A model generated the notes under the pieces. The model searched no databases, was not told the DNA's origin, and saw only the letters and a list, made by a program, of their open reading frames with translations. This document shows positions 3,584-21,909 of a stretch of DNA of 64,000 nucleotides, one piece after another. Made by a program: the position numbers and the translations under genes. This DNA comes from Mycoplasmatota bacterium (GTDB taxonomy: Bacteria > Bacillota_I > Bacilli_A > MAG-NZ): positions 248,001 to 312,000 of the forward strand of contig CP074575.1 in the NCBI GenBank assembly GCA_018394315.1, written 5' to 3'. How positions within the stretch are numbered: the stretch's first letter is position 1; the number at the start of each line of letters is the position of its first letter.

Positions 3584-3618
3584 TGGGGTGACTGAAGGTG
3601 CCTATAAGGCACTCTCGA
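3584..3618 (-). repeat. tRNA-His 3'-end repeat R1 (class B: 15-bp core plus GTGCCT-ATA-AGGCAC hairpin)
   Basis: TGGGGTGACTGAAGG is a 14/15 match to tRNA 21950-21964, followed by TGCCTATAAGGCACTCTCGA. Confidence 0.88.
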
Positions 3619-3692
3619 TTAAATCAATTGCTGCCCTTCAACATCTTCATTGGTTTGAATCCGACTGTCAGAGCTGTGACGGCACGCAAATT

Positions 3693-4121
3693 CTAATACA
3701 ATTTAACTTTTCCTTGAAAGGTATAAGAGGCAGAATTATTAATCAATTTGCTAATACCATACTTATGATAAGGCATTAGACTATCAGCTGTTGGAATATC
3801 TACCCATTTTACTATTGAAATTTCATTTGGATCTGATATTGAAATCTCTCCATCAACAATTTCAGCCCTAAAGGTCACAAATATTGCATGTTCTTTCTTT
3901 TTTTCAAAAAAACATTCATTTATAGCAACCACATCTATGATTTCAATATGGAAACCTGTTTCTTCATGCATTTCTCTAATAGCTGCTTGTTCTAATGTTT
4001 CCCCATCTTCAACTAACCCACCTGGCATAGACCAGTGGTTAGTATCTTTATTATGTACCATTAGTACTTGATTAGTTACTTTATTATATATCAAACAATA
4101 TACCACATTTACTTTTTTCAT
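3693..4121 (-). CDS. Nudix hydrolase
   Basis: Nudix box GGLVEDGETLEQAAIREMHEETG. Confidence 0.93.
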   Translation of the reverse strand: MKKVNVVYCLIYNKVTNQVLMVHNKDTNHWSMPGGLVEDGETLEQAAIREMHEETGFHIEIIDVVAINECFFEKKKEHAIFVTFRAEIVDGEISISDPNEISIVKWVDIPTADSLMPYHKYGISKLINNSASYTFQGKVKLY

Positions 4122-4203
4122 TTATAATCACCTCATTTTTTAGTATTACATTCATAAATCCATAATACCACAACATACTAAATTGATAAAAGCAAATTTC
4201 AAC

Positions 4204-4236
4204 AAAAAATGACTAGTTCTTCTGAACTAGTCATTT
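4204..4236 (-). terminator. Terminator hairpin resembling the one beside repeat R3
   Basis: AAATGACTAGTTC-TTCT-GAACTAGTCATTT perfect stem with an A-run. Confidence 0.7.
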
Positions 4237-4542
4237 GTCAAAATACATTGTCTTCTCTTTAACATTAAAGAATCGGTGTTTCAACTTTTCAATTCTAGAT
4301 ACTATCACTAGTTCTTTTTTATCTTTTATATATTCATTTACAAACTAGTAAGGATCTTCTACACTATTCCTCAAACCGATAAAACCAACTCCAATTGTAT
4401 TGGAAATCTTAGTATTACATTTAGTACAATAAGAATACTATTAAATAACTTAAACAGGGTCTTACAGACCCTATTTCTTCTTATATTACCTAATATCGGT
4501 TTTTAAGTTAATTAAATATAAATATTGTTGTTTACATCAACT

Positions 4543-5094
4543 CTATGGACGTTTTGACATAAGAGTCTTAGATTTACAAGGAATGCTAACAACATAATCG
4601 GATAAATTTACGTTTTCTTCTATCTTCATCTTCAATAATTTATACGTTACTAAAGCATCACTCAAAGGGTTGTGAGCATCGTGCTGTATATCATAATGAA
4701 TAGCTAATTTCCCTAATGCTACCTTCTCTTCCGAAAAAAAATTCATATTAGAGATGTCTAGAAAAGAACCTTCTACAATATCAAGATTTGCAAGCTTGAG
4801 TTGATCGTTTAGTGCCAGAAAATCTTCTTTTGAAAAACAGACAGGGATCACATCATCTTCTACAAAAAAGTCCCTTATCTCATCGAATAATTCCTTCACT
4901 CCAAAAACAATAGTCGCAATATTTCTAAATTCGTTAACTTTTCTTTTAGGAGCATTCCTGTTACTTACATCTATACTATCATCAATGATAATGTTTTGAC
5001 TAAGTATATTAAGATCACTATCAACATAAATGTATCCCAGCATGTAGATTTTCGTATTCTTAATTCGTTCCGTATCCCAAATGAAAAACCTCAT
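4543..5094 (-). CDS. DEDDh 3'-5' exonuclease family protein
   Basis: Start MRFFIWDTE (ExoI DxE) behind RBS GAGGGA. ExoIII motif HNPLSDA. Confidence 0.8.
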   Translation of the reverse strand: MRFFIWDTERIKNTKIYMLGYIYVDSDLNILSQNIIIDDSIDVSNRNAPKRKVNEFRNIATIVFGVKELFDEIRDFFVEDDVIPVCFSKEDFLALNDQLKLANLDIVEGSFLDISNMNFFSEEKVALGKLAIHYDIQHDAHNPLSDALVTYKLLKMKIEENVNLSDYVVSIPCKSKTLMSKRP

Positions 5095-5214
5095 ATATTC
5101 CCTCGCATAATTCTCTTTCAATTTTTTCTTCGAGCTCATCTATTATCTTGTTTTCAGCATTGCTAAGTTTGTTTGATATATTTGTGTCAGTAATCATAAC
5201 TTCTCCACTCCTAA

Positions 5215-5438
5215 TTAATGGCTTCCTCCATACTTTTTGTGCAATGCTACTAAATACTTCAAACTACTCGAATCATAGTTGTTGTGTCTCTCAGACATGT
5301 GACAATGACTTATGTTCTTGTACATGTTCAATACACATTTTTAACTTCTCTTTTAATGTATAACGCATAATAAAAGTTCCCTTCATCAGAGTAGGTAATT
5401 AATTATACCATTTCTCCAACTTTTTGGAAGCCATTTCA
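5215..5438 (-). mobile_element. IS3-family (IS150-like) left-end remnant with decayed orfA
   Basis: Minus strand starts TGAAATGGCTTCCAAAAAGTTGGA (IS3-type IR), then TATAAT, an RBS and MRYTLKEKLKMCIEHVQEHKSLSHV*. It continues frameshifted as NYDSSSLKYLVALHKKYGG, which is OrfA HTH-like. Confidence 0.72.
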
Positions 5439-5446
5439 AGTCATAA

Positions 5447-5475
5447 TGGGGCGACTGAAGGGAATCGAACCCTCG
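5447..5475 (-). repeat. tRNA-His 3'-end repeat R2 (class A, 29 bp identical, whole T-arm to CCA)
   Basis: TGGGGCGACTGAAGGGAATCGAACCCTCG is identical to 21950-21978. Confidence 0.95.
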
Positions 5476-5740
5476 TAAGTCAAACATACACTTATTTCAA
5501 TATATATTTTTTCAAAGAGCAATCGAAAATATTTGATGAATTATGATGTCATTATATGACATAATTGCTTAATCCCATTAATTCATCTACTACTATTATA
5601 AGATTTACACGGAATGATTCGTTCTGTTCAAAAAAATAATTTGCTTTTTCTCAATTTATTCTCTATTCTTGAAAACATAATATATTCAATAAAGGCAATA
5701 ATTAGGGATCCAACTCCTGTAATTGCTTAATCTAAATTTC
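5476..5740. repeat. Class-A flank, copy 1 (direct repeat of about 18547-18811)
   Basis: Near-identical over about 160 bp (e.g. CTATTATAAGATTTACACGGAATGATTCGTTCTGTTCAAAAAAA), then degenerate similarity. Confidence 0.88.
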
Positions 5741-6077
5741 TTCTTTAGTTAACCAATTATTCAATTATATCAACTAGATCTAAATGTACGGTGTTGTAGA
5801 CCGTATTAAAATGGGAAATAAAATCTTATATATCACTTACCTTATCTTGATAATCATCTAGTCATAAATTATTTTAATTTGCAATTATGTCCGAATCACC
5901 ATGCGCACATAAAATCCAATAAAGGAACAAGCGACCTACCTTTTTCTGTAATACTATACTCAACTTTAGGTGGTATAACCTTATAATCCTTCCTATGAAC
6001 TAAACCATCTCTAACAAACTCTTTTGTATAAAATATGAATGCTAGTCTTAAAAAAAAAGAAGAATTTCACATTCCTC

Positions 6078-6620
6078 TTAAATAAACCTGATTAGCTCAT
6101 CGACTTCCATACGACCAACTGGTCTTCCTGGCCCTTCTGGGTACCCATAAACAATCAAAGCAGCGACAGTTTCATTAACTGGTAAGTTAACTATCTCGGA
6201 AATCTCTTTATCTGCTATTACACCCATTATAACTGTACCAATTCCCTTTGTATGTGCTGCCAGGCAAAACTGATGTGCAGCAATACCAGCATCGAACACT
6301 TCCCATGAATTCGCCTTACTAGTACCATAATTTCCATCATCCAATTTTCCACTTAATCCATTTACATAACTCAAAACAACTACACCCTTCGCATTCTCTA
6401 GCGTTTTCGTATTATAAATAAATCCATTTACTGCTTCAGTTGCCAGTCTCTTAATAATTTCTTCATCATCAACAAATGTGTATCTAGCTATCTGATAGTT
6501 CTTCCATGAAGGTGCAAACTTTGCAATTTCTACAATTTCTCTTAACAATTCTCGATCAACTTTTTGATCCTTATATTTTCTAATACTTCTTCTTTCTAAT
6601 AACAACTCTTTGGCTTCCAT
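6078..6620 (-). CDS. Nitroreductase family protein
   Basis: RRSIRKY, APSWKNYQ and C-terminal GYP motifs. Confidence 0.92.
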   Translation of the reverse strand: MEAKELLLERRSIRKYKDQKVDRELLREIVEIAKFAPSWKNYQIARYTFVDDEEIIKRLATEAVNGFIYNTKTLENAKGVVVLSYVNGLSGKLDDGNYGTSKANSWEVFDAGIAAHQFCLAAHTKGIGTVIMGVIADKEISEIVNLPVNETVAALIVYGYPEGPGRPVGRMEVDELIRFI

Positions 6621-6796
6621 AAATATCTCCTTTATATTACATGATTAATAAAAGAATAACACTCCTTTACATTACATGCAATATTGTTTTTTCTTTATTA
6701 TGCGAGAGGAGTTCAATATAAAAATTACTAGATTTCGAAAGGACAATAACATCATCTAAAGTTTTAAAAAGGAATGAAATCAATAAAAATAGTTTA

Positions 6797-7726
6797 TTAA
6801 AAATCACATACGTTATCCAAACATTGATTACGCCATCTCAATAACCAGTCAAGTTGATTATCTATGAAATCATCGTTAATACAATCTAGACCATTGATCT
6901 CTAAGATAGTAGCTTGTAATTGAAAGTGATATAGTGCAATTAAATAGTAAAATGATTTTATTTCACTTGGAGTCAGTTCACAGTGCTTTAAATATCCTTT
7001 TAAAAAAATTTCATATGCATCCTGTGACTTGAAAAATCCTGACTCATCAAACTCAAAATAGTCAGTCCGATTACAAACCATCATAATATCATACATAGGA
7101 AAAGCAAAACTTGAAGTATCAAAATCAAGAATATAGTACGTATCATTCTTATCCCTTAATAAATTACCTAAGTATAAGTCACCATGACAAAAACCTCTAG
7201 GTAAATTCTTAACACTCTCCCATAAATAATTACCATACTCTATAAACGTGCTTAGTTTACTCTCTTCATAACATTTTTGTTTCAATTGACATATATATCG
7301 TTCGATAAAATAGTTTTTATCTTGTTCTATCAATTCATTGGGATATTCTTTCATTATTTTGTGCAACTTGCCAACTAGTTCCCCAATTTTTGAATAATCT
7401 TCAACTCTATCAACTTTAGCAACTTCATCTCCATCTATATAATAAAATAGCACACCAATTTTTCCGACTTCAGTTTTAAAGAAACTTTGATTTGACTTAG
7501 TTTTGACGACTTTAGGAGAAAGAAACTCATTTTCTTCCAAGAAATTTAAAACACTTAATGACTGTTTAATTGTTTTCGAAAATGAATCTGGTACAAGTTT
7601 AAATAAATACCTCTCTCCTCTACTAACTGCAATAAAGGACTTCGATCCCCCTTCTCTATTATTTTCTAGTAATGTTATGTCTATTCCGTAATTAATTCTT
7701 AGTAAATCAATGAGATTTTCATTCAT
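6797..7726 (-). CDS. Aminoglycoside phosphotransferase / homoserine kinase type II-like kinase
   Basis: Brenner motif HGDLYLGN and DFD. Confidence 0.88.
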   Translation of the reverse strand: MNENLIDLLRINYGIDITLLENNREGGSKSFIAVSRGERYLFKLVPDSFSKTIKQSLSVLNFLEENEFLSPKVVKTKSNQSFFKTEVGKIGVLFYYIDGDEVAKVDRVEDYSKIGELVGKLHKIMKEYPNELIEQDKNYFIERYICQLKQKCYEESKLSTFIEYGNYLWESVKNLPRGFCHGDLYLGNLLRDKNDTYYILDFDTSSFAFPMYDIMMVCNRTDYFEFDESGFFKSQDAYEIFLKGYLKHCELTPSEIKSFYYLIALYHFQLQATILEINGLDCINDDFIDNQLDWLLRWRNQCLDNVCDF

Positions 7727-7821
7727 TGCGCTAATCCTCCTAACAAATAGAACTTAATTCTTATCTCTTCAAGATAGGTATAGTAAATAAGTCCATTACC
7801 ACTTAATCTTTGTTGTGATAA

Positions 7822-8238
7822 TTAATGATTGTTTTCATTAATACTCAAATTTCTATAAATCAAATCATCTCTTTTATCAAAACCAAGTGATTGCCAAAAT
7901 TTATTTCCTAAATCATTAGAATTAAATACAAGAAGTGCAATCTTATTTATTCCTTCTTTCTTTAAAGCTTCAAGCACAGTATTAACCATTTTTTTCCCAA
8001 TTCCTTCCCCACGATATTGAGAATCAACTGCCGTATGATAAACGTATCCTCTTCTTCCATCATGTCCACATAATATTACACCGACAATATCATTTTCGAC
8101 TTGTGCAATATAATTTGTGGTGGGGTTTCTTTTTAAGAATTTTTCTATTCCCTCATATGAATCATCTAAATTACGCATACCCATACCTTTTGTATCTGTC
8201 CATAATTGATATACTTTGTCATAATCCCCAATTGTCAT
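7822..8238 (-). CDS. GNAT acetyltransferase
   Basis: GHDGRRGYVYHTAV and the acetyl-CoA motif YRGEGIG. The true start may be ATA at 8253. Confidence 0.9.
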   Translation of the reverse strand: MTIGDYDKVYQLWTDTKGMGMRNLDDSYEGIEKFLKRNPTTNYIAQVENDIVGVILCGHDGRRGYVYHTAVDSQYRGEGIGKKMVNTVLEALKKEGINKIALLVFNSNDLGNKFWQSLGFDKRDDLIYRNLSINENNH

Positions 8239-8610
8239 TAATTTAATTTCTATGTTAGCCGCCTCCTAAACCCATATATTCATCTTACTCCTGATTTTCC
8301 CTTATTCATTTTCCTTACTATCCATTAGTTCTTTTATAATCAACTTTATATTTCTAAAACATCAATATTTTTTCAGTATAAAAAACTTAGTTAGAGTAAA
8401 ACCGCTATTACCTTCATAATATCATATAGTCTCATAGCATACAATTAGCTATGCTATAAGAAAAAAAAGCGAAAGTTAATCGATTACTTATATCCATTTT
8501 GGGAATATGAGAACCAGTTATTTTCACGAAAAAGCATGAGCAACTAAATCTATAGAGAGATACATAAAAAAAATAACCAAGTTATTGTACTAGTCATTCG
8601 TATGTCATAA

Positions 8611-8642
8611 TGGGGCGACTGAAGGTAGCTATGAGGCACCGA
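8611..8642 (-). repeat. tRNA-His 3'-end repeat R3 (class B)
   Basis: TGGGGCGACTGAAGG is 15/15, followed by TAGCTATGAGGCACCGA. Trailer TCGTATGTCATAA and a degenerate terminator at 8566-8598. Confidence 0.9.
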
Positions 8643-8764
8643 TTAATGAAAGAGTAAGATGTTAGTAGACATGAAAAGAATGTGTTTTATAATCTATAAA
8701 AGGATTAATTTAGGTTTAGTATCCTGATTATGTTTACAAGAAGAATCGAGAAAAATCTCGATTC

Positions 8765-10618
8765 TTATGTATTATAGTGCTTTGCTTGAGCAGACCACAT
8801 ATTATAATATAAACCATCAGTACTTCTTAACAATTCATCATGGTTCCCTGACTGAATAATTTCGCCTTTGTCAAACACAATTATATTGTCGCAAAATCTA
8901 CAGGAAGACATTCTATGAGATATATATATTGCTGTTTTTCTTTCGACCAATGCGTCAAACTTCGTATATATTTCATATTCAGAAATTGGATCTAATGCTG
9001 AAGTTGGTTCATCAAGAATAACTAGAGGAGTGTCTTTATATAATGCTCTAGCTATAGCTATTTTTTGTGATTCTCCTCCTGAAACTTCTACCCCTTGTTC
9101 ACCAAAGTTTGAATAGAGATAAGAATCAATACCGTTTTCTAATTTTTCTATTCGTTCTTTCAATCCTGCTTGTTCTAAGTATTCTAGGACTTTTTCATCT
9201 TCTCCATCTTGCTCACACATCACGTTTTCTTTTATTGTTGACGAAAATAATTTAAAATCTTGGAAAACTACAGATATCAGGTCAATATATTCTTTATAAT
9301 CATATTTTCTAATATCAATTCCATTAAGTAAGATTTCTCCCTTTGTTGGATCGTATAACCTACACAATAATTTTATAAAAGTTGTCTTACCAGCTCCATT
9401 AGGTCCCACAATGGCTAATTTCTTGCCAGTTTCCATCTTCCACGAAACATTATTCAGAATTATTTCGTCATTATTAGGGTAATGAAATGAAACATTCTTA
9501 AATTCAAATTCATATTCACCATCATCACGTTTTTCGACTGGGAGTGTTCCTTTATACATGTTTGTATTTGTCTCCAAATATTCTTTGTAAAGAGCCAAAT
9601 ATCTTGTTTGCATTACTGCACCAGAGATATTAGACGCAAATTGTACGACAGCTGTATTAAACGCTGTTACCGCACTCACAAGTAAGAGTACATTACCTAC
9701 AGAGATTATTCCTAGTAATGCTTTAATCCCTATAATTGTATAAGCTGTATATAATACTACATGATTCAACAATCCACCTCTTGCATTCATCCAGCCAGAT
9801 TTATTAAAAATATATCCGTAAGACTTTGAGGTTCTTACGCTATAATCTTTAATTTTACTAGAAAGCAATTTATCAATATGAAATAACCTTATATCTTTGC
9901 TTAATTTATAATCCATTGAAGAATTAAGTAAATATAAAAATAACCTATTTACATATATATTCTCTTCAAACACGGCATGGTGTAATTTGTTTACGTTATT
10001 AATTATTTTGAAATTTAATAACAAAGAAATAATTATTAATCCTATTAACCCCACTCCCAATAAAGGACTGTTAAATATTCTTGTAATTTTATCTGGATCA
10101 TTTAAATCTACACTAATAAATAAAGCTATAATCAAAGTGAATGAGTAGATAATAGATATAATATTTTCAATGGCTTCACCTAATATATTTATAAAGGTTC
10201 CAATTCCACCTGTAAATAGTACTCCTTGATTAGCACTAGAAATTTTATCTTTTATTTCTTTTGACTCTAATTGTTCAAAATCTAAGTTAAGAGTCTTTTT
10301 TGAAATCTCACTATTTAAACGTAGACCTATCAGATTAGTCTTTTGTTCACAGAAGAAAGTCAACATGGTTCTAGAGATTAAGAGTATCCCACTGATAATA
10401 ATCATTTGATATACATAGGCCATGATAGACGTTTTATCTAGAGCATCAATAAACCCATCAAGAATTAACGCACTATAGATTATTGCTACAAATGGTAGTG
10501 AAGCCGTAACTAAAGATTTAATAATCATGAGAGGAAAAAATAGTCTATCTGATTTGTTTGATATTTTTATTACATCAATAATTTCTTTTAATAGTTTACG
10601 TTTAGATTTCATCTTCAT
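8765..10618 (-). CDS. ABC exporter (TMD-NBD fusion)
   Basis: GPNGAGKTT, VSGGE and ILDEPT. Start MKMKSK behind GAGGA. Terminator AAGAATCGAGA/TCTCGATTCTT at about 8741-8766. Confidence 0.93.
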   Translation of the reverse strand: MKMKSKRKLLKEIIDVIKISNKSDRLFFPLMIIKSLVTASLPFVAIIYSALILDGFIDALDKTSIMAYVYQMIIISGILLISRTMLTFFCEQKTNLIGLRLNSEISKKTLNLDFEQLESKEIKDKISSANQGVLFTGGIGTFINILGEAIENIISIIYSFTLIIALFISVDLNDPDKITRIFNSPLLGVGLIGLIIISLLLNFKIINNVNKLHHAVFEENIYVNRLFLYLLNSSMDYKLSKDIRLFHIDKLLSSKIKDYSVRTSKSYGYIFNKSGWMNARGGLLNHVVLYTAYTIIGIKALLGIISVGNVLLLVSAVTAFNTAVVQFASNISGAVMQTRYLALYKEYLETNTNMYKGTLPVEKRDDGEYEFEFKNVSFHYPNNDEIILNNVSWKMETGKKLAIVGPNGAGKTTFIKLLCRLYDPTKGEILLNGIDIRKYDYKEYIDLISVVFQDFKLFSSTIKENVMCEQDGEDEKVLEYLEQAGLKERIEKLENGIDSYLYSNFGEQGVEVSGGESQKIAIARALYKDTPLVILDEPTSALDPISEYEIYTKFDALVERKTAIYISHRMSSCRFCDNIIVFDKGEIIQSGNHDELLRSTDGLYYNMWSAQAKHYNT

Positions 10619-12425
10619 TATCCTCCTTTTCATTCTCTTTGTAATACTGACTTTGAATTGCAAACATCTTAGAGTATTTACCTTCCTTCTCCATCAATTC
10701 CTTATGATTCCCTATCTCTTGAATCACTCCGTCTTCTAAATAGATAATTCTATTACAAAACTGAGTTGATGATAATCGATGTGAAATAAAAATAGAAGTT
10801 TTATTCTCAGTTAATGAATCATACTTTAGATATAATTCCTGTTCTGCAAGTGGATCAAGTGCTGCAGTAGGTTCATCTAATACTAGGATTGGAGCATTTT
10901 TATATAAAGCTCTGGATAACATTAGTTTTTGTAATTCTCCTCCAGATAACATAATTCCTTTATCATCAATTACTTGGGTCAAATTGGTATTTTCTTTTTC
11001 TGGTAATGAAGATATTTTTTCTGATAGCCCAGATTGTTCCAATACATTCTTTACCTTTTCAAAATCAGTGGCTTCTTCAGGTTTTCCTGATATGTTTTGA
11101 GCAATTGTAAACGGCATTATATTAATATCTTGGAATATAACACCAAATAAATTGTAGTATTCATACTTATTAAACTTATCGATGGGAATTCCATTGACTA
11201 ATATCTCACCAGCAGTAGGATTATAAAGACCAGTTAGTAGTTTTACTATTGTTGTTTTACCAGCGCCATTCACTCCAACTAAGGCAATTTTTTCTCCTGC
11301 TTCAATTTTAAGATTCAGATTGACAATTGTTGGTTGTTCCGCTTTTGGATAGGTGAATGAGACATTTCTAAATTCAATTGATAGTTTTGTATCTAGTAAT
11401 GGCTCAGTATCCTCTCCAGGTCCCATATTAATACCATCATCCATACAAATATAATCTCGATAACTATTTACTCTAATATTAGCTTCTTTTAAACGTCCAT
11501 AGGTTCCAGATAATTGATTTAGCCACACAGCAAATCCAATTACTATCCCTATCATAAAAGTGAATTCAGCCACATTAATATGGCCATCCAAAACCATCGA
11601 TACTAATATTGTATATGCGATCAAATTTCTAATTATTGTAAATAGTGAATCAGATAAATTAGCTATTGAATAACGAGATTTTTGCTTCATTACCAAAGAA
11701 GAAAATTTTTTTGTAAAAAACTTAATTCCTTTATAGAACCATTCCTCTAGTTTGTAAACTCTAATATCTTTTGCGTTAACTAATTTATTTGCTTCTCCTT
11801 GATAATACATTAATTTAGTTCGGTAAATATTGAGTTCATCTTCCGTTCGTTTCTCATAGTTACGTGCATAGGAATTTAATACTAAATTCATTACAGACAT
11901 ACCAAGTAACACCAATACTATTAAATAGTTGATTGATAAAATATATGAACTAAATAATAGTAATCCAGCAATACTCGTGATAAAAATAGGGAAGTCTGAA
12001 AAGAAACGTTCAACTCCAACTGCATTAGCCTCTATTGCACCCACTGCCTTCATTAGTTTTTTACGGCCATCTTCAAATTCCATATTCTCATAACCAGTTT
12101 CCATTCCTTTACTGCTTAATAACTCAAAGAAATAATTTGTTCTTATCACAGTTTTTTCAAAAAATAATGCGTATGAAAGATATGTACTGATGAAGCTAAT
12201 AAATGCAAAAACCAACACAACAAGTCCAACAAATAATGCGTAACTCTTAAGTTCATAATCATTAATTATTAAGTAAACGACCACTGTAGGAATGAACGTC
12301 GCGAAAATCGGAATCAATAATTTAAGAATAATCGAAGATCCTAATTTGAATTTGTAATTCTTGTTAAAACTATTTGCTTGTGAATACAAGTATTTTGCGT
12401 TCTGTAAAATGTTACTATTTTCCAT
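10602..12425 (-). CDS. ABC exporter (TMD-NBD fusion), heterodimer partner
   Basis: GVNGAGKTT, LSGGE and VLDEPT. Start MENSN behind GGAGGGA. Paralog of 746-2551. Confidence 0.93.
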   Translation of the reverse strand: MENSNILQNAKYLYSQANSFNKNYKFKLGSSIILKLLIPIFATFIPTVVVYLIINDYELKSYALFVGLVVLVFAFISFISTYLSYALFFEKTVIRTNYFFELLSSKGMETGYENMEFEDGRKKLMKAVGAIEANAVGVERFFSDFPIFITSIAGLLLFSSYILSINYLIVLVLLGMSVMNLVLNSYARNYEKRTEDELNIYRTKLMYYQGEANKLVNAKDIRVYKLEEWFYKGIKFFTKKFSSLVMKQKSRYSIANLSDSLFTIIRNLIAYTILVSMVLDGHINVAEFTFMIGIVIGFAVWLNQLSGTYGRLKEANIRVNSYRDYICMDDGINMGPGEDTEPLLDTKLSIEFRNVSFTYPKAEQPTIVNLNLKIEAGEKIALVGVNGAGKTTIVKLLTGLYNPTAGEILVNGIPIDKFNKYEYYNLFGVIFQDINIMPFTIAQNISGKPEEATDFEKVKNVLEQSGLSEKISSLPEKENTNLTQVIDDKGIMLSGGELQKLMLSRALYKNAPILVLDEPTAALDPLAEQELYLKYDSLTENKTSIFISHRLSSTQFCNRIIYLEDGVIQEIGNHKELMEKEGKYSKMFAIQSQYYKENEKEDNEDEI

Positions 12426-12488
12426 TTCTTTCCCTCCTAATATCTTACAATTTAAATATATGACAAAATTTCTAACAATTAAAAAAAA

Positions 12489-12520
12489 GTGCACGAAACG
12501 TTGAATTTTGTGCACTAGTG
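12489..12520 (-). promoter_or_regulatory. Candidate LytTR-binding direct repeat
   Basis: GTGCAC at 12489 and 12510, a 21-bp period typical of LytTR sites, between the LytTR/GHKL pair and the ABC operon. Confidence 0.5.
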
Positions 12521-12525
12521 GTTGT

Positions 12526-13545
12526 TTATAGTGGCAATAGCACCTCTGAAACGAATACTTTAGGTTCATTTTGACGATTAATAAAGCCGCTATACTTATC
12601 AACAACATTATTAATTCTTTTTAAACCATGTCCGTGATTGCCCCTTTTTGTTGTAATATACTCATCGTCTAGTTTCCTTATTATTTCATTAGTAGAATTT
12701 GCTACAGAAATATATAGTTGCTGCTTAAATACCCCGATATATAGTCTTACAAATTTTGGACTTTTGTCTTTAATCTTTTCACAGGCTTCTACAGCGTTAT
12801 CGATTAGATTACCTATTAATACACATAAATCGATATCTGATATAGTGAGTTTCTCTGGGACTTTAGCTTTGTATTTTATTTCAACATTATTTTTAATCGC
12901 TAAGGAAAGTTTAGAGTTAAGAATTGCGTCAAGATTTACATTGCCCGATTCAACTAGTTGGTTAACACTATCCAAATCAATTTCCAGTTCATTGAGATAT
13001 TCATTAGCTTCTTTTATTTGATCCATCATGATATGAGCTTTAAGCTTTTGTAAATGATTGTGATAATCATGTCGCCAACTTCGCATTGTTAGATAAATAT
13101 TTTGGACTTCTTTTACCTGCTTATCAAGAATTTTATTTTGGTATTCTGTAGCAATATCTTCATAAGATTTTTTCATAAGAATCTGATTGTTTTCTGCTAA
13201 TAAAAATATCGTAGAAATCAGAAAACTAATGTATATAGAAGTTTCTTGAAATTCATAACTAAGGAATAAAAGTAACCCCATTGAAAAAATAAAGAGGAAT
13301 AGAAATATAAATGTTATTTTATGATATAAGCGCAATAAACAAAAAACGACTAATGTATCTGCCACAAGTAAAGTCACAAGATTTTCAGATATAGTCAAGT
13401 ACTTTAGCAAAACAAAAAACGCTATCAGAGTAATCGCTATGATAGCCAACCCAATCATAATGGTATTAAGTTTCTTATTTTTATCCAACAGAAACAATCC
13501 ATAAATAATTACAATAAAAATCGGTACTAATATATAATATTCCAT
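12526..13545 (-). CDS. GHKL sensor histidine kinase (AgrC/HATPase_c_5-like)
   Basis: TM N-terminus, H-box RHDYHNH, N-box NLIDNAVEA and G-box HGHGL. Confidence 0.92.
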   Translation of the reverse strand: MEYYILVPIFIVIIYGLFLLDKNKKLNTIMIGLAIIAITLIAFFVLLKYLTISENLVTLLVADTLVVFCLLRLYHKITFIFLFLFIFSMGLLLFLSYEFQETSIYISFLISTIFLLAENNQILMKKSYEDIATEYQNKILDKQVKEVQNIYLTMRSWRHDYHNHLQKLKAHIMMDQIKEANEYLNELEIDLDSVNQLVESGNVNLDAILNSKLSLAIKNNVEIKYKAKVPEKLTISDIDLCVLIGNLIDNAVEACEKIKDKSPKFVRLYIGVFKQQLYISVANSTNEIIRKLDDEYITTKRGNHGHGLKRINNVVDKYSGFINRQNEPKVFVSEVLLPL

Positions 13546-14258
13546 TACACACCTTTTCCTTTATAATAATTTATAAATTTCTCATTAACTTCTTTATATG
13601 AGTTCCTACTTAAAGGAACTTTTATATTATTGATTAGTTGGCATTCATTCTTAGTAATTTTTTCAATATAGTTAAGATTTACAACGTATGAACGATGAGT
13701 TCTAATAAATTCTGACTCAGATAGTTCAAGACATAAATCACTCATCTTATACTTATAGTCATATTCCTTATTTTCTACATGTAATACAATATAATGTCCC
13801 ATTGATTCAAAATAAACAATATCATCATAGTTTATTTTTTTCTTTTCTCCAGACACTGATAGAATTAAATATTTATTTTCTTTGCCTATATGAGTATTAG
13901 CATAATCTAAAAGCTCATATACTTTTTCATCTTTAATAGGTTTTAAAATATATCTAATTGCTTGGACTTCATAACCTACAAATACATAATCAGCCATTCC
14001 TGATATGAAAGCAATTATTACATTTTTATCAGTTTCCCTAATCTTCTTAGCAAGTTGAATTCCATTTATTTTACCCATTTGTATATCTAAAATAATCATA
14101 TCAAAAGGATATGATTCGTTATTTTCAAATAACATTTCTTCAGCACTTTGATAAAAATTTATGTCAGTATTTGTATTATATTTGTTAGCCCATTTTTTAA
14201 TAATCACTTTCAAATAGTCAAGTTGTGTCGAGTCATCATCAACTAAGCATATACGCAT
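13545..14258 (-). CDS. LytTR-family response regulator
   Basis: Receiver motifs VDDD, LDIQM and YILKP. LytTR motif FIRTHRSYVVN. Confidence 0.94.
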   Translation of the reverse strand: MRICLVDDDSTQLDYLKVIIKKWANKYNTNTDINFYQSAEEMLFENNESYPFDMIILDIQMGKINGIQLAKKIRETDKNVIIAFISGMADYVFVGYEVQAIRYILKPIKDEKVYELLDYANTHIGKENKYLILSVSGEKKKINYDDIVYFESMGHYIVLHVENKEYDYKYKMSDLCLELSESEFIRTHRSYVVNLNYIEKITKNECQLINNIKVPLSRNSYKEVNEKFINYYKGKGV

Positions 14259-14459
14259 ATAACTCCTCCATCCTAAAAAAATTTTACCATTTTTAATCAA
14301 CTTATTCTTTTAAAATATCAAATACCCTATCGTTTTCTCATCATGTATCATTATTTTCTAATTTGTAGTACCATACTTAATTATTAACATGCCATATAAA
14401 TACCAAAAAAAGCGCAAGAGGGGGGCTTTGTTATAGTATGATATAATTAGTTGCAATCC

Positions 14460-15149
14460 TTATTTTTTCTCTAAATACTCCTCACAACTAGTTTTTAATG
14501 GTATTAATTCAGTCTTAATAGTTTGCCATAATAGTTCATAATCGACGTTCATGAACAATGCCTCTTTCAAAGCGATACAGCCTTTCAATTTTGAAACATC
14601 TACCCCTATAATACTCTCTAATTCGGACATAGGCATTTGTGATGCCACCTGTCCTAATAATTGTATGTTTCTGGTAACGGCGTCTTGAACTAATACACTA
14701 CTCATAAACTCTTCTTTAGAAATGTTTTTACAGCACTCATTAATGCGATTAATTACCCATACAACACTTCTCATATTGAATGTAATCTTATCAAATTTAG
14801 TTTTTGGATTTTGCTTATTGCTATTCGCTTTGAAGTCTGCAAAATCAGTTATTGAAATACTATTATTATAAAAATGCTCTAATATATTGGAGTTTAACCC
14901 AGAATATGTAAGTATATCTACAGGTAGTTGTAATAATCTTTCTAAATCATATTTTAATCTCCCATAGTTAATCAATGTACTTTTATCTGATAACTTCATT
15001 ATTAAATCAACATCACTATTACAAGTATCTTCGCTCTTAAATATTGAGCCAAATATCCTTGCCTCAATAACATCATACTTATCAAACAATTGCAGCACAT
15101 CATTGTACTTTTGTAGCAATACATCTGAAGATCTTCTCTTTTTTTCCAT
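14460..15149 (-). CDS. Minimal nucleotidyltransferase (MNT) fused to a DUF86/HEPN-like domain
   Basis: N-terminal FGSx10DVD and PVDIL. C-terminal QDAVTRNIQLLGQ...VDYELLW is DUF86-like. Confidence 0.8.
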   Translation of the reverse strand: MEKKRRSSDVLLQKYNDVLQLFDKYDVIEARIFGSIFKSEDTCNSDVDLIMKLSDKSTLINYGRLKYDLERLLQLPVDILTYSGLNSNILEHFYNNSISITDFADFKANSNKQNPKTKFDKITFNMRSVVWVINRINECCKNISKEEFMSSVLVQDAVTRNIQLLGQVASQMPMSELESIIGVDVSKLKGCIALKEALFMNVDYELLWQTIKTELIPLKTSCEEYLEKK

Positions 15150-15251
15150 TAGTTATCTCCAATTATTAATCTAATAAATCTCAACAAAAACCTTAAAAGG
15201 TTTCACATACATATAATAACACAGAATCCAAAATAATAATAACTAAGAAAG

Positions 15252-15460
15252 TGAACTGGCTTTCTTATATTGGAGTGGATTTTGATCAACCCCCCACCAT
15301 ATTTGCTTCTTTAAAATACTCATTTCTATAGTTTACTGGACTCATCTTGTGTCTAGTTACTATTCTTGTGTTATTGTAATAATCTATATATTCGAGTATA
15401 GTACTCATCAATTCTTCTATCTCTATTATAAGATTTGATTTGTTTCGTTCAAAAAAAAAT
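15252..15460 (-). mobile_element. IS3-family right-end remnant (OrfB C-terminus plus IR)
   Basis: IEELMSTILEYIDYYNNTRIVTRHKMSPVNYR is typical of an IS3 OrfB tail. It ends CCAATATAAGAAAGCCAGTTCA. Confidence 0.8.
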
Positions 15461-15541
15461 TTCGTTTTCTTAGATATTTTAATAAGAAAAAGCAATAATA
15501 AGAGATCCAACTCAAATTATTGCCTTTAGTTCAAACTGTAG

Positions 15542-16735
15542 TTACTTCACCTTTTTACCCATAAATAATATATTACCTTCATCGTCACCGATTATAAACA
15601 TAAATGGTCTATTTACGATAAATTTTCTATTATCTGCTTCACATTCTTTCATCTTTACTGATGTAGCTGCTGCCGCCTCTGTACCCTTTTCACTTACATC
15701 CACTACTGCTTTATGATTCACTTCACTTATATAGAGTGACTTGTTGCCTTCAATTAAGTATGGAAAACCTTCTGCTTTACTATCAAAGGCAATGCCCATA
15801 CCAAGATGTTTCAAGGCGCCACTTATTTCTTCGATTCCATATTCCATCCTAAATTTTGGTAGTTCAAGAGTAACTTCATAATGATTATGCATACCGTTTT
15901 TTACATCTAACCATTTTTCTTGATTCATTTTAGAAACAATTGAGTTAATATCTGTGTTTTCTCTAGGCAAAATACAATACATACTAACTTTTCCATCACC
16001 ATAAGGAATTCTTACAGATATTATTTCTTCATTTTCATAGTAACTAAAATATTTAGATTTTCTCATCATGTCAACTTCTACTATAGTATTGTCGATCGTA
16101 TTGAAATCTTTTACTTTTGTCATTTCAGGATCGAACTCATCTTGCCATGATCCATTGAAATATATTGCATTTACTAGATACAATACTGCGCTTGGATCTA
16201 TTTTCTTAATTATTTTATCAATCATCTCGGAGGTTTCATCACTCACCCAATTGTTTATTGTTTCTGATGATTTCGTATCATTAAAGTCAAGTTTAGATAC
16301 TATTGAATCAAAATTAAATCTTACATCCTCTTTAAATTGCTCATTCAATTCGTACTCATCTCTTAACCATAATGAATTAGCAATATTAATTTTGACGTCT
16401 TTATCCAGGTTCATTAGCATGTGATTTATATAAGCAAATCCATTATTTATATCTTCCATACTAATATCAGTAAGTTTTAAAGTATCTTCCATCGCACTCT
16501 TTGTATTTCCTTCTGCTCCATTTAAAGTCATTGCTAGAGCACTTGAAATACTATATGGAGATATAAAAATATTTTCGTTATAATCCTCATTATTTAACTC
16601 TCTAAAGATATCAAAGGCAAACTCAGAATTCCCTTTAGTTACTAAAGGATTTTCTACACCCTTATTTACCCTTTCGCATGCTAACAAGGTAACGCTTAAC
16701 AATAATAGAAAAAGCATACTTACTAATTTATTCAT
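15542..16735 (-). CDS. Serpin (protease inhibitor), predicted lipoprotein
   Basis: Lipobox LLAC, NIFISPYSI, NAIYFNGSW, hinge EKGTEAAAAT, and NRPFMF...ILFMG. Confidence 0.95.
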   Translation of the reverse strand: MNKLVSMLFLLLLSVTLLACERVNKGVENPLVTKGNSEFAFDIFRELNNEDYNENIFISPYSISSALAMTLNGAEGNTKSAMEDTLKLTDISMEDINNGFAYINHMLMNLDKDVKINIANSLWLRDEYELNEQFKEDVRFNFDSIVSKLDFNDTKSSETINNWVSDETSEMIDKIIKKIDPSAVLYLVNAIYFNGSWQDEFDPEMTKVKDFNTIDNTIVEVDMMRKSKYFSYYENEEIISVRIPYGDGKVSMYCILPRENTDINSIVSKMNQEKWLDVKNGMHNHYEVTLELPKFRMEYGIEEISGALKHLGMGIAFDSKAEGFPYLIEGNKSLYISEVNHKAVVDVSEKGTEAAAATSVKMKECEADNRKFIVNRPFMFIIGDDEGNILFMGKKVK

Positions 16736-17090
16736 CTAATCCCTCACTTTTAATTCTTTATATTTTATAGCATACTCTAATATACTATCACTTCCACTAA
16801 GGTAATCTTCAAAGGTATAGCTAATTGAAATGTCTGGGTAAAGGGTTTCGTCATTCTCATCTATAAATTCAAAATAAAGAGACTGCTGAAAGTATTGAGT
16901 GGAGTAAGATGTATTAAGAAGTTTATTGGGTGTAACTAATGTTAGGATATCACCAAAAGAATCAGGCTTCTGTCCTGTTGGCTCACCAATTAATAGACCA
17001 TCCAAACTATTCTTTATGCTAAGTGCATTTAACATTCCTGAAGAATAAGTACCTAAATTGATTAACCCAATAATAGCATTACTGTTTTCC
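16736..17090 (-). pseudogene. C-terminal fragment of an S41 peptidase (paralog of 18940-20244)
   Basis: IGLINLGTYSSGMLN...IGEPTGQKPDSFGDI closely matches the C-terminal quarter of the 18940 protein. The N-terminal part is missing. Confidence 0.85.
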
Positions 17091-17244
17091 ACATAAAATA
17101 CCTTCTCCCATATATCGTATAGATATATTGTACCACAAAAAATATTTAAAGAATGCGAATGATTCGACAAGGGGTTAATGACCAATTAGTAAAAGAGGAG
17201 CAAATACTTTATTTAATTAAGTTTTATACTATAGTGCAACACAT

Positions 17245-17274
17245 AAAAAAACACCAACTTTTCCAGTTGATGTT
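17245..17274 (-). terminator. Terminator downstream of repeat R4
   Basis: AACACCAACT-TTTCC-AGTTGATGTT stem (G-U pair on the minus strand) with an A-run. Confidence 0.65.
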
Positions 17275-17284
17275 AATGATTTTT

Positions 17285-17320
17285 TGGGGGCGACTAAAGG
17301 TGCCTATAAGGCACTCACGA
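17285..17320 (-). repeat. tRNA-His 3'-end repeat R4 (class B)
   Basis: TGGGGGCGACTAAAGG followed by TGCCTATAAGGCACTCACGA. Confidence 0.85.
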
Positions 17321-17342
17321 ATAGTGAATCATTCTAATTTCA

Positions 17343-17434
17343 AGTCCTGAAAATAGCAAACCCAACATTGTGACTTAATAAAATTGATGGTGGGGGTTAG
17401 ATAGTAATCTATGCAATTTTTCAGAGTCACTTCA
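17343..17434 (+). mobile_element. Degenerate IS3-family right end
   Basis: ATGGTGGGGGTTAGAT...TGCAATTTTTCAGAGTCACTTCA parallels the IS3 end at 15252-15300 (ATGGTGGGGGGTTGAT...CAGTTCA). Confidence 0.55.
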
Positions 17435-17442
17435 AGTCATAA

Positions 17443-17473
17443 TGGGACGACTGAAGGTGCCTATAGGGAACTC
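17443..17473 (-). repeat. tRNA-His 3'-end repeat R5 (class B)
   Basis: TGGGACGACTGAAGG is 14/15, followed by TGCCTATAGGGAACTC. Trailer AGTCATAA. Confidence 0.87.
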
Positions 17474-17615
17474 ACCAATGTTACTTATTAAAAAACTTAT
17501 CATCTATTTATGATACGCCTCACCGTATCTATATAATCAGCAAACTTAAAAAAGTACTAATGAGCCTGATTTTCATCTCAGGCTCTTTAGTATAATATAA
17601 GAAGTTTGCGAATCA

Positions 17616-18080
17616 TTATTCTTTTGACTTCATCATCAAACATTCCGTTATACCTTGTCTGTATAAGTTAGGTATATCACCAATTACTGAATATCCTATA
17701 TCTTTGTACAATCTTTTTGCATCCGGATTAAAATCGGATACTACTAAAAATAGTTTTGAATATTTTTTATAATAAACATCCTCAATAAATTTTAAGAGCA
17801 TTTTTCCTATTCCCTGACCACGATTTTCACTTTTGACAGCAATAATATGTACATAAGGATGCATATGGAAGATTCCATTTAATATAACCCATACAAATCC
17901 CTTACAGTTGTTATTATTGTCTATTGCGACATATATATCATTTTCGTTAAATCCTTCTTCTAATGCTTTTCGAGCTTTTCCCTTTTCTGAAAAATATCTT
18001 TTTCCCAGTTCTGAATTTACTAATGCCTCCTCACAATCATCTATATAATTTATACTTCCCTTTTTAACTGTTATTTCCAT
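17616..18080 (-). CDS. GNAT acetyltransferase
   Basis: RGQGIGKMLL and NPDAKRLY motifs. Confidence 0.92.
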   Translation of the reverse strand: MEITVKKGSINYIDDCEEALVNSELGKRYFSEKGKARKALEEGFNENDIYVAIDNNNNCKGFVWVILNGIFHMHPYVHIIAVKSENRGQGIGKMLLKFIEDVYYKKYSKLFLVVSDFNPDAKRLYKDIGYSVIGDIPNLYRQGITECLMMKSKE

Positions 18081-18331
18081 ATAAAATACACCCCTAATCT
18101 TAAGTTAATTACCCAATATTTTACAAATGTTCACAATTAGTTATATTATATACCAAATTCCTACATCATGCACTAGGTCCAAACTTTATTTTATTTGTAA
18201 TTCTTGAGCTATCCATCTACCTCGTCAAATCTAAACCGTTTTAACTCTCTTTTCAAACACATATTATAATTATGTAATAATTGTTACAAACGGAATAATT
18301 AATAGCAGTTCACCCTATAGGAGGAGTTTAA

Positions 18332-18454
18332 ATGAGAATAATTCAATCACTAAACAACATAAGCCAACTAAAGCAACATTCCCCACTAGCTAAGGATATT
18401 AAGTTGTTAAGTTCATTCCTCTTTCATATTTATGGTACGGCTCATTGTTTTTAA
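18332..18454 (+). CDS. Small 40-aa ORF or gene remnant
   Basis: Strong RBS AGGAGGAG, then MRIIQSLNNISQLKQHSPLAKDIKLLSSFLFHIYGTAHCF*, ending before a hairpin. Confidence 0.35.
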   Translation: MRIIQSLNNISQLKQHSPLAKDIKLLSSFLFHIYGTAHCF

Positions 18455-18473
18455 TTCTAAACAACACATATAT

Positions 18474-18505
18474 AAAAAAAACGGTAGATTTATTAATCTA
18501 CCGTT
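18474..18505 (-). terminator. Terminator downstream of repeat R6
   Basis: AACGGTAGATT-TATT-AATCTACCGTT perfect stem with an A-run. Confidence 0.85.
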
Positions 18506-18517
18506 CGTAAGTCATAA

Positions 18518-18546
18518 TGGGGCGACTGAAGGGAATCGAACCCTCG
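18518..18546 (-). repeat. tRNA-His 3'-end repeat R6 (class A, 29 bp identical)
   Basis: Identical to 21950-21978. Trailer TCGTAAGTCATAA versus the tRNA's TCGTAAGTCTCAA. Confidence 0.95.
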
Positions 18547-18811
18547 TAAGTCAAACTTACACTTATTTCAATATATATTTTTCAAAGAACAATCATAAAC
18601 TATCTGATGAATTATTATGTCATTATATGACATAATTGCTTAATACCATCAATTCATCTACTTCTATTATAAGATTTACACGGAATGATTCGTTCTGTTC
18701 AAAAAAAAATTACCTTTTTCAAACTATCCTCTATCTTGTGGAACTGGACTATACTTAAAAAAAGCAATAACTGAAGATATACCTTCTAACATTGCCTCTA
18801 ATCAAGAATTC
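18547..18811. repeat. Class-A flank, copy 2
   Basis: Direct repeat of 5476-5740. Contains the palindrome ATTATGTCAT-TAT-ATGACATAAT (18614-18636). Confidence 0.88.
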
Positions 18812-18939
18812 TTATTTAATTCACAAATTCTATATAGTATTCAGTTCTTACCCTCAAAGAGAATAATCCAATTATTATGTATAATGCAACAGATTTACTC
18901 AGAGGAGTTTTAAAACACGGAAATTGCCCAGTGCAGTAT

Positions 18940-20244
18940 CTAGGTTTTATAGTTTATAGCATACTCAAGTATACTATCACTTCCATTAACATAATCATCA
19001 AATGTATATCTAATATGTATGTCTGGATAGAGTGTATCATCACTTTCATCTATGAAATCAAAAAATTGAGACATTTGAAAATATTCTGTAGAGTAAAAGA
19101 CATCGAGTAAATTATTTGGAGTAGATGTAGGACGAATATCACCAAAACTGTCCGGTTTTTGTCCTATCGGTTCTCCAATCAAAATTCCATCTAGTTGTCC
19201 CTTAATAGATAGTGAGTTTAACATACCAGATGAATAGGTTCTCAAATTAATCAGTCCAATAAAATCTATATCATTCTTATAATTTTCTAACTCAGAATAT
19301 AAAGGAGATATAATTGTTGAATTCCCTCCTCCATTATCTCTTAAATCAATAATTATTTTTGTGAAACTATTATCATGAATTTCCTGTTTTACATCTTCCA
19401 CAAACTGCTCCATCTGATATCTTGAATCTTCTTTGCATTTACTATATTTAATATAGAGAACATCCTCATCAATTTTCGCCTGCCAATAAATACGACCTGT
19501 TTCATTTCTTGTAATGAAATTATCTGCTTTCTCTGCAAGAGTAACTCTAGAAGAAACCGACTCCTTTAATTCATATGTAAATATTTTGCCTTCTTTTAAA
19601 AGTACCATTTCAAGAGTGTCAAAGTCTTCATTATCAGCTATCATTTTCCAATATTCTGATTGATGCAGAATTCCAGGCAGCTTGAAATCTAGTGCAAAAT
19701 TAGATTCATGGGAAACTATGGCCGAAAATTTTTCCGAAACTTCCTCAAGACTTAGTCCATTTATAGCTACTATCCGAGAATTAAGTATTTTAGGATTACT
19801 TCCGGTAGTAGCAGTAATATAATAGTAGTTATCAAACTTACTTACCCTAATAGGAAAATATCGAGTTGGCCTAAATATTAGATTTGTATGGCTATCTCCA
19901 ATTTTGGCGAGTTCTTTCATCACTTCATGTTTAATAAAAATTTCATCAGCCTTATCATTTGCTCTTTCAATTATTCTATTCATTTCACCCACAAAAACTT
20001 GTGCATCATAATTCCTACTAATATCTTTGTGTAACTCAGGAAGATTATCTCTAAGATATTCCAAGTCTTCCACATACTTGCTAATCAGTTCTCGTTTTTC
20101 TTCATCCTCTTCATTCTGAACAGTATCAAGATTATGAATTGGATTACTGTGAGAAGAATCTTCTATCTCATGAATATTTTCATAACTCTTTGAACATGCA
20201 CCTACTAAGAAAGGTATCACTAATAGAAATGCTTTTTTCCACAT
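18940..20244 (-). CDS. S41-family peptidase, predicted lipoprotein
   Basis: Start MWKK behind GGAGG, lipobox LVGAC, IIDLRDNGGGNS, TYSSG and IGEP. Confidence 0.88.
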   Translation of the reverse strand: MWKKAFLLVIPFLVGACSKSYENIHEIEDSSHSNPIHNLDTVQNEEDEEKRELISKYVEDLEYLRDNLPELHKDISRNYDAQVFVGEMNRIIERANDKADEIFIKHEVMKELAKIGDSHTNLIFRPTRYFPIRVSKFDNYYYITATTGSNPKILNSRIVAINGLSLEEVSEKFSAIVSHESNFALDFKLPGILHQSEYWKMIADNEDFDTLEMVLLKEGKIFTYELKESVSSRVTLAEKADNFITRNETGRIYWQAKIDEDVLYIKYSKCKEDSRYQMEQFVEDVKQEIHDNSFTKIIIDLRDNGGGNSTIISPLYSELENYKNDIDFIGLINLRTYSSGMLNSLSIKGQLDGILIGEPIGQKPDSFGDIRPTSTPNNLLDVFYSTEYFQMSQFFDFIDESDDTLYPDIHIRYTFDDYVNGSDSILEYAINYKT

Positions 20245-20342
20245 ATTAATAACCTCCAAAGCTATATATATAAATAATAGCATATAGTGCTATCAATAGA
20301 GTCAATTATGTATTTAACCGTTCGACAAAAAGCAACGCAAAC

Positions 20343-20371
20343 AAAAAAACAGTTAGAAATTTAACTGTTTT
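20343..20371 (-). terminator. Terminator downstream of repeat R7
   Basis: AAAACAGTTA-GAAATT-TAACTGTTTT with an A-run. Confidence 0.75.
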
Positions 20372-20381
20372 ACTGTTCTTT

Positions 20382-20416
20382 TGGGGTGACTGAAGGCGTA
20401 CACTAAGTGCTTACGA
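20382..20416 (-). repeat. tRNA-His 3'-end repeat R7 (class B variant)
   Basis: TGGGGTGACTGAAGG is 14/15, followed by the bulged hairpin CGTACACTAAGTGCTTACGA. Confidence 0.85.
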
Positions 20417-21816: not shown

Positions 21817-21909
21817 GTGAAAACAGTACTAAACACACCAATTCAACACTAAAATGACTCCATTTAGAAAATTTAGCGTTCTCAAAGCTCCATATAGTTC
21901 ATATAAAAC

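Follow-up and report, generated by a model that had tools for sequence, protein, structure and literature searches.

An array of repeated tRNA-His 3' ends was examined in a 64,000-nucleotide stretch of DNA (the window) from a Mycoplasmatota bacterium (assembly GCA_018394315.1, contig CP074575.1, positions 248,001 to 312,000 of the forward strand). The sole tRNA gene of the window, tRNA-His(GTG), was located by ARAGORN at 21950-22025 on the minus strand, and a search of window positions 1-24000 against Rfam gave nothing above threshold except tRNA. Downstream of the gene lie eight copies of its 3' end, R1 to R8, with accessory genes between them; the gene, the repeats and the cargo are all on the minus strand and the sites are read here on the tRNA strand. 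Three of the copies (class A, starting at 5447, 18518 and 21787) keep the T-arm and T-loop, and five (class B, starting at 3584, 8611, 17285/6, 17443 and 20382) keep a 15-nt tRNA-His 3' core. The class-B sites are very probably attP-type junctions of a large serine recombinase (LSR), and not the structure-conserved hairpins that an original prediction, made from the letters of the window, had taken them to be.

Organisation of the array

Outward from the tRNA the intervals are 163, 1405, 1864, 1075, 157, 8675, 3164 and 1863 bp; a ninth site lies 13 kb beyond the start of the window and three more occur elsewhere in the genome. The five class-B repeats are present where the original prediction had placed them, and identity to the tRNA does end after GAAGG (TAAAGG in R4), just before the T-loop. 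A site consists of 23 bp, a central TC located 12 nt from the CCA end of the tRNA, and a further 23 bp: a left arm is followed by TC, the last ten bases of the tRNA and a 13-nt tail, the end of which (+15..+23) is a 9-bp motif; a terminator usually comes next. The left arm may carry the same motif mirrored, at -23 in sites of P type and at -18 in those of B type. The features of the array are as follows.

21950..22025, minus strand: tRNA-His(GTG), the array anchor (ARAGORN, Rfam); the 5' strand of its T-stem would provide a B-type half-site, with the motif at -18 (motif offset)
21937..21984, minus strand: 48-bp site overlapping the tRNA, read as B.P'; the 9-bp distal motif, at +15..+23, closes its right arm; centre TC at 21960-21961
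21915..21938, minus strand: hairpin resembling an intrinsic terminator, after the right arm of the tRNA site
18479-18506 and 17250-17274, minus strand: similar terminator-like hairpins after R6 and R4 respectively
21774..21821, minus strand: R8, degenerate class-A/B-type site; motif at -18, centre TG
20369..20416, minus strand: R7, class B (P.P'); motif at -23, centre TC at 20392-20393, bulged hairpin at 20397-20415, right arm degenerate
18505..18552, minus strand: R6, class A, whole T-arm kept, right arm intact
17430..17477, minus strand: R5, class B; motif at -23, centre TC at 17453-17454, four of six hairpin pairs
17273..17320, minus strand: R4, class B; motif at -23, centre mutated to TT, perfect hairpin at 17300-17314, right arm degenerate; 157 bp from R5
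8598..8645, minus strand: R3, class B; left arm degenerate (best motif offset -27), right arm nearly intact, centre TC at 8621-8622
5434..5481, minus strand: R2, class A, T-arm kept
3571..3618, minus strand: R1, class B; motif at -23, centre TC at 3594-3595, perfect hairpin at 3598-3612

The interval of 163 bp closed by R8 is without any open reading frame (ORF) of at least 90 aa. Judged from their sequences the repeats are not chance similarities, because the 18-nt hairpin motif, which occurs at three places in the 2.17-Mb genome when up to two mismatches are allowed, is fused to a tRNA core every time, and because a right-arm profile that reached at most 16.9 bits on the reversed genome scored 22.9-46.4 bits on seven of nine window sites. 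R4 and R7, with their degenerate right arms, fell under the 14-bit threshold of that profile.

The class-A sites probably derive from tyrosine integrases of the T-loop type. A flank of about 200 nt at R6 is common to R2 and to sites at tRNA-Ser and tRNA-Pro, and four tyrosine recombinase genes stand directly beside tRNA-Trp, tmRNA, tRNA-Ser and tRNA-Arg in this genome. R2 and R6 both have a second copy of the 9-bp distal motif, in direct orientation, at -23..-15 in the left arm.

Homologous sites in related genomes

Arrays or sites of the same kind at tRNA-His were found in three relatives from the same family (G001, G004 and G005; the genome under study is G000) and in metagenome contigs. The named genome records with the right-arm motif were one Mycoplasmatota genome and one Mollicutes metagenome-assembled genome (MAG). 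A search of 401 genomes of the class with the P-type His pattern matched seven genomes; exact matches were confined to members of the family, and outside it there were five matches in four genomes, each with one mismatch. The right-arm tail is not generic to tRNA-His, being absent from 11 of 11 other tRNA-His genes, and the 11 viral matches to a right-arm 17-mer all lay outside tRNA-His arrays.

For comparison 52 sites were gathered, of which 49 were kept after removal of two duplicates and one plain tandem duplication from a metagenome; the set also leaves out two matches at chance level, discarded beforehand, the G005 tRNA and two G004 sites that contain indels. The 49 comprise five tRNA genes and 44 non-tRNA sites, the latter typed by eye as 23 of class B (P), 11 of B type and 10 unassigned. 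Seven of the 23 P sites are from this genome and 16 from others.

Some sites of the His type occur away from the tRNA, namely a B-type/P-type pair 3.8 kb apart (G000:C1:970246-974054) and a class-A-like site at 1819749, which suggests secondary arrays. At four places (L024:1609-1682, L025:1965-2038, G004:C1:2030487 and 2023658) a B-type His site was seen directly after the terminator of a tRNA-Leu-type site, so that Leu cassettes would bring with them a secondary target for the His system. Some sites of the relatives (L024 and L025 of G001; 2258431 of G004) have the motif at -18 together with a loop that is not that of the tRNA; the -18 position is thus kept without the T-loop.

A conserved 48-bp dyad

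A profile of the mirrored motif was made only from right-arm positions +15..+23 of the 49 sites, and scores above 4 were counted. The left arm carried the motif at -23 in 12 of the 44 non-tRNA sites, among them R1, R4, R5 and R7 of the window, and at -18 in six of the 44 and in all five tRNA-His genes, where this position is the 5' strand of the T-stem; at each of the 24 other offsets it was found in at most three of the 44 sites. TC was the best of 49 dyad centres, with a complementarity of 0.37 against a mean of 0.25 for the 44 unselected sites, and the value rose to 0.47 on the 16 P-type sites from outside this genome. In the same 16 sites tRNA identity ends sharply at the centre, 15 of them matching the tRNA at T and at C and five at position -1. 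The available text of Rutherford et al. (PMC3783163) places the zinc-domain (ZD) motif of the LI serine integrase at positions 16-24 in attP and 11-19 in attB. Counting the central base as 1, the motifs of the His sites fall at 16-24 and 11-19 as well, and the -23/-18 pair matches the 5-bp attP/attB shift of LSRs.

The local hairpin is not conserved

The original prediction saw in the class-B sites a tRNA T-loop replaced by a conserved hairpin. The structures on which it relied exist: R1 (3598-3612) and R4 (17300-17314) both contain GTGCCT-ATA-AGGCAC, a perfect inverted repeat, and the bulged hairpin CGTA-CAC-TAA-GTG-CT-TACG of R7 folds as described, at -2.1 kcal/mol. However, the hairpin is a feature of two near-identical copies and does not define the site. 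Among the 23 P arms the six pairs were complete in R1 and R4 only, with four of six in R3 and R5, two of six in R7 when it is read in the same register, and between none and three of six in the 16 sites of relatives. Four of the 23 arms had a better fold than their shuffles (p<0.05), and these folds were spread over three registers; a stable fold on the tRNA-sense strand was missing from 10 of the arms.

Covariation was scored on an alignment of 21 of the 23 P arms, two G000 sites outside the window being left out. The score was reached by 36 of 500 shuffles and RNAalifold predicted no consensus pair; 46% of cells were paired against 40% after shuffling, a proportion reached by nine of 500 shuffles, and the best-kept pair was present in no more than 11 of 21 rows. 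Against column shuffles the mean folding energy gave p 0.007 for all 23 arms, but 0.052 without R4, 0.21 without R1 and R4, and 0.37 for sites outside this genome. There is thus a weak residual fold signal, and it is carried by the near-identical pair R1/R4. Patterns based on the hairpin had no matches in the collections of genome contigs or viral contigs. The lack of conservation in other copies was the very outcome that the original prediction had named as counting against itself, and it was largely what was observed. Its idea of a cassette recombination site with an attP half at the tRNA 3' end stands, as does its view that dyad symmetry matters, but the dyad is the 48-bp one on the crossover dinucleotide and not the local 6-bp hairpin. 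A likeness of R1 to the Xer dif site was also considered and dropped, the other copies being without it.

Serine recombinases and analogous arrays

LSR genes in this order are known from G004 alone of eight genomes, where family matches gave four in all, one of them shown with PF00239, PF07508 and PF13408; none lies in the His array. Two of the four G004 elements are bounded by tRNA-Leu(TAG) sites and two by tmRNA sites, and these sites too have their centre 12 nt from the CCA end and the mirrored motif at or near -23. One of the Leu elements also encodes PolA, a Toprim protein and DUF960 beside the LSR, a set reminiscent of the gene content of the staphylococcal cassette chromosome (SCC). The genome under study retains two truncated C-terminal LSR remnants, one in its tmRNA array (C1:1082945-1083727, 77% identical to a G004 tmRNA LSR) and one in its tRNA-Leu array (C1:100714-101022).

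Beyond the family, LSR homologues were found at tmRNA in five of 11 regions examined. Of 86 further loci with LSRs of this group, 17 have convergent ends no more than 1.5 kb from the 3' end of a tRNA or tmRNA, the targets being tmRNA or the tRNAs for Ala, Leu, Glu, Gly, Pro, Trp, Arg and Ser. Ten fragments from seven gene/fragment sets bracketing or beside LSR genes all showed identity to the gene over 12-14 nt from the 3' end, and in eight of the ten, two of them ties, the 9-mer at -23 of the fragment matched the gene best at -18. Sites of similar geometry are present at LSR elements of other tRNAs and of tmRNA.

Several further observations concern arrays elsewhere. The genome under study encodes tRNA-SeC and has at least 10 tRNA or tmRNA genes with displaced 3' fragments (Trp, His, Glu, two Ser, Gln, tmRNA, Arg, Pro and Leu). 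The head of the R2 cassette (5214-5476) is 89% identical to the head that follows a tmRNA fragment at G000:C1:1071518-1071782, so that one cassette start stands behind two att types. In G004:C1:1534000-1630000 (L075, L042, L036, L035) there are dense arrays of short genes, integron-like in scale, with dozens of separating repeats that resemble the tRNA-Phe anticodon arm and a segment of tRNA-Trp.

A model of cassette insertion, and its rivals

The explanation we favour, with a probability of about 0.82, is that the class-B sites are attP-type (P.P') LSR junctions in a tandem array of recombinase-less cassettes like those of SCC and DsiB. An LSR would exchange strands at TC, at the junction of the T-stem and acceptor stem of tRNA-His, and the right arm would restore the last 10 nt of the tRNA, followed by the distal ZD motif and the terminator. 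The left arm of the incoming circle would bring the mirrored motif at -23 (P type), while in the tRNA a look-alike, 5 bp closer to the centre, would be offered by the T-stem on its 5' strand (B type). Recombination of a P.P' circle with the tRNA at TC would leave the tRNA whole as B.P', still a target, and the earlier cassette would be pushed outward behind a P.P' joint, which is the class-B site. Since the cassettes are without a recombinase, they would have depended on an enzyme supplied in trans, or have been accreted together with a helper element that has since been lost, a kind of movement also proposed for the Dehalococcoides ssrA islands (PMC3146451). This outward order of insertion is one that we infer. 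The array might still be active. The mutated centre of R4 and the decayed arms of R3, R4 and R7 suggest that several joints are inactive.

A number of observations weigh against this reading. No intact LSR was found in this genome by family search, and a custom hidden Markov model (HMM) detected neither an LSR nor a remnant in the His arrays of G000, G004 and G005 or in the metagenome loci; there was no His-specific LSR among the 86 LSR loci and no LSR beside 11 tRNA-His genes in viral contigs. The assignment of an LSR of this group to the His sites is therefore drawn from geometry and analogy. Of the 17 loci that end near a tRNA or tmRNA several are near-duplicates, and the count has no control set of unrelated viral loci. 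The geometry itself is not uniform: in the five window sites taken alone TC is not the best dyad centre (0.34, z 1.4), inner arm positions 1-10 do not pick out the TC centre (z 1.6-1.9), 10 of the 44 sites fit neither class, and in this genome six of seven class-B sites match the tRNA at -3..-1 too, which puts the boundary at 15 nt and not 12. At other targets the B-arm motif of tRNA-Leu is ambiguous (-13 by profile, -18 or -19 pairwise) and in some tmRNA sites the right motif is at +14, not +15. Finally, phage LSRs do not normally recombine B.P' with attP, according to the available text of PMC3783163, and relaxed directionality like that of SCC must therefore be assumed.

In a rival explanation the class-B sites are attP/attR joints at which a tyrosine integrase of the junction class (T-stem/acceptor-stem) would move cis-mobilizable cassettes in trans. 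The enzymes usually found at tRNAs are tyrosine integrases, and the junction is a recognised subsite in the available text of PMC4383910; this genome has the four tyrosine recombinase genes beside tRNAs and tmRNA and no intact LSR, its tRNA identity reaches 15 nt, and class-A sites in the very same array resemble T-loop-type tyrosine sites. However, a 7-bp overlap starting from TC needs a centre near +3, and at centres +2.5 to +4 complementarity is 0.16-0.23 against 0.44 at TC. The bimodality of -23 and -18 is an LSR signature, it is LSR genes that analogous sites bracket, and no remnant of a tyrosine integrase was seen in three His arrays, so we regard this alternative as improbable.

Two other explanations fare worse. 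That the T-loop was replaced by a single-strand hairpin of conserved structure, recognised as in an integron attC site, draws on the perfect 6-bp stem of R1 and R4, on the four arms that beat shuffles and on the small excesses in folding energy and paired cells described above; that excess rests on R1/R4, the stems of other sites fall in differing registers or are lacking, and neither covariation nor a consensus pair was obtained. The crossover of attC is at the edge of the folded site, whereas the identity boundary here is at the dyad centre, and none of 10 genomic PF00589 matches, which were not screened for the IntI insertion, is in or beside the array. The geometry is that of double-stranded binding by an LSR and not of a folded single strand, and with its conservation missing the hairpin explanation is largely refuted and very unlikely. 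The sites could also be decayed scars of mixed origin, produced by duplication or homologous recombination of tRNA ends with no dedicated enzyme geometry. Many copies are indeed degenerate, mutations have reached the central dinucleotide of R4 and of sites at other places in the genome, 10 left arms out of 44 cannot be classed, and one site from a metagenome is simply a tandem duplication. Random duplication, however, would not be expected to produce motif offsets that are fixed across three assemblies, nor a boundary of identity as sharp as that seen, and this explanation has hardly any likelihood.

Cargo between the repeats

The cargo of the array consists of accessory genes on the tRNA strand, listed here outward from the tRNA.

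20745..21542, minus strand: R8-R7, xylose-isomerase-like TIM barrel protein
18940..20283, minus strand: R7-R6, peptidase S41-like protein
17616..18080, minus strand: R6-R5, GNAT acetyltransferase
8765..17185, minus strand: R4-R3, 149-aa fragment resembling the end of the S41 gene, serpin, MNT-HEPN fusion, LytTR two-component pair and two ABC exporters
6078..8238, minus strand: R3-R2, GNAT, APH-family kinase and nitroreductase
3693..5139, minus strand: R2-R1, 198-aa unknown protein and NUDIX hydrolase

No recombinase gene was found among the window genes, and promoter-like sites were at chance level (127 against 126). At other places the genome encodes four paralogues of the serpin (15542-16735) with about 72% identity, three of which lie in the region of the tRNA-Arg array, and an ISL3-family transposase is encoded at 51468-52754 of the window. 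A 42-bp block occurs twice with 86% identity, at 3674-3715 and 20474-20515, 56-58 bp past the P arms of R1 and R7; the copy on the R1 side overlaps the end of the NUDIX ORF. Two DNA sequencing runs (10% and 6% of words) contained joints from 15154 to 18503 and from 17259 to 21937, near right arms of His sites. These joints are compatible with other cassette orders in related strains, but their sides are short and their middle parts unknown, and they were not used as evidence.

Probable targeting of tRNA 3' ends by serine integrases

No new hairpin-recognised cassette site is described here, and that finding is corrected; the main interest lies in a group of serine integrases that target tRNA 3' ends. 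Prior descriptions that were found concern only tmRNA (DsiB) and a few elements of the tycheposon study, given without site detail. The available text of the island database paper (PMC4383910) states that serine integrases at tRNA 3' ends are not known, the accessible part of the tycheposon preprint (bioRxiv 10.1101/2020.12.28.424599) reports LSRs in 27 of 937 elements, and the word 'tRNA' does not occur in the text of the LSR survey of Durrant. No literature on a serine integrase crossover at the acceptor stem was found, although TIGER 2020 and Williams 2002 may already mention serine integrases at tRNAs. The sequences now make a clear case for serine integrases that act on the 3' ends of ordinary tRNAs, always at the same position.

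A wider, tentative proposal, which we hold to be possible but somewhat doubtful, is that a little-described and widespread LSR group reads the 5' strand of the T-stem as the ZD motif of attB and cuts many tRNAs at the T-stem/acceptor junction. In this Mycoplasmatota family it would have become integron-like, with helpers acting in trans, stacked cassettes of one to a few genes excising between P.P' joints and re-inserting at the tRNA, and secondary B-type sites seeding new arrays. As tRNA ends are present in every genome, integrases with predictable attB sites at tRNAs would be useful integration tools, and the arrays show how accessory genes are gathered by bacteria that have small genomes and no integron.

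Comparison with known systems

The array has some of the look of an integron, with promoter-flanked or single-gene cassettes, nearly all in one orientation, and cargo such as GNAT, NUDIX, kinase and toxin-antitoxin genes. Unlike attC, however, its sites have no conserved single-strand fold, their crossover is at the dyad centre and their right arm is derived from the tRNA; no PF00589 match that could represent an integron integrase with its attI head was found in or beside the array, and RYYYAAC and GTTRRRY boxes were not apparent when the 21-arm alignment was inspected without an attC model. As with the tyrosine tRNA islands, cis-mobilizable elements (CIMEs) and tycheposons described in the available texts of PMC4383910 and bioRxiv 10.1101/2020.12.28.424599, each successive integration is marked by a 3' fragment of the tRNA and displaces the older elements outward. 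In contrast to the tyrosine islands, the class-B geometry is of the serine type and inverted cores round an overlap of 6-8 bp were not seen.

The sites are closer to the attP and attB of LI and A118, for which the accessible text of PMC3783163 gives a 9-bp distal motif at 16-24 in P and 5 bp inward in B, a 2-bp centre and a total of about 48-50 bp. They differ from phage LSR sites in the apparent repeated use of B.P', which the same text describes as blocked by phage integrases, and there are no phage genes in the array. The Dehalococcoides ssrA islands with their CcrB-like serine integrase DsiB (McMurdie et al. 2011, PMC3146451, as far as its text was available) likewise have tandem units downstream of a tRNA or tmRNA 3' end with copies of that end between them, every copy being preceded by a conserved motif that is not part of the tRNA; many of the islands lack an integration module and are read as cis-mobilizable. 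Their target, however, is tmRNA, with a 20-bp repeat and insertion in the T-loop, whereas here it is a true tRNA with 12-15 nt of identity and a crossover at the junction, and they carry a six-gene DsiB module at attL, whereas no DsiA/ParB/Mom module was found among the window ORFs.

With SCC composites and their CcrAB or CcrC, in the available text of PMC13739063, the array shares two degenerate inverted half-sites round a central dinucleotide, three half-sites that are alike with one that overlaps the target gene, tandem integration and recombinase-less cassettes. The SCC target is rlmH, with a TATCATAA core; here it is tRNA-His, and the 8-mer TATCATAA is absent from the site consensus. On the CcrB model of NCBIfam, for which the cut-off is 900, the related LSRs reach 132-156 bits, there is no CcrAB or CcrC in this array, and its units inside the window, of 0.16-8.7 kb, are unlike those of SCC. 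The array thus fails the tests for attC. It operates in the manner of an SCC composite or a DsiB ssrA array without being a member of either system.

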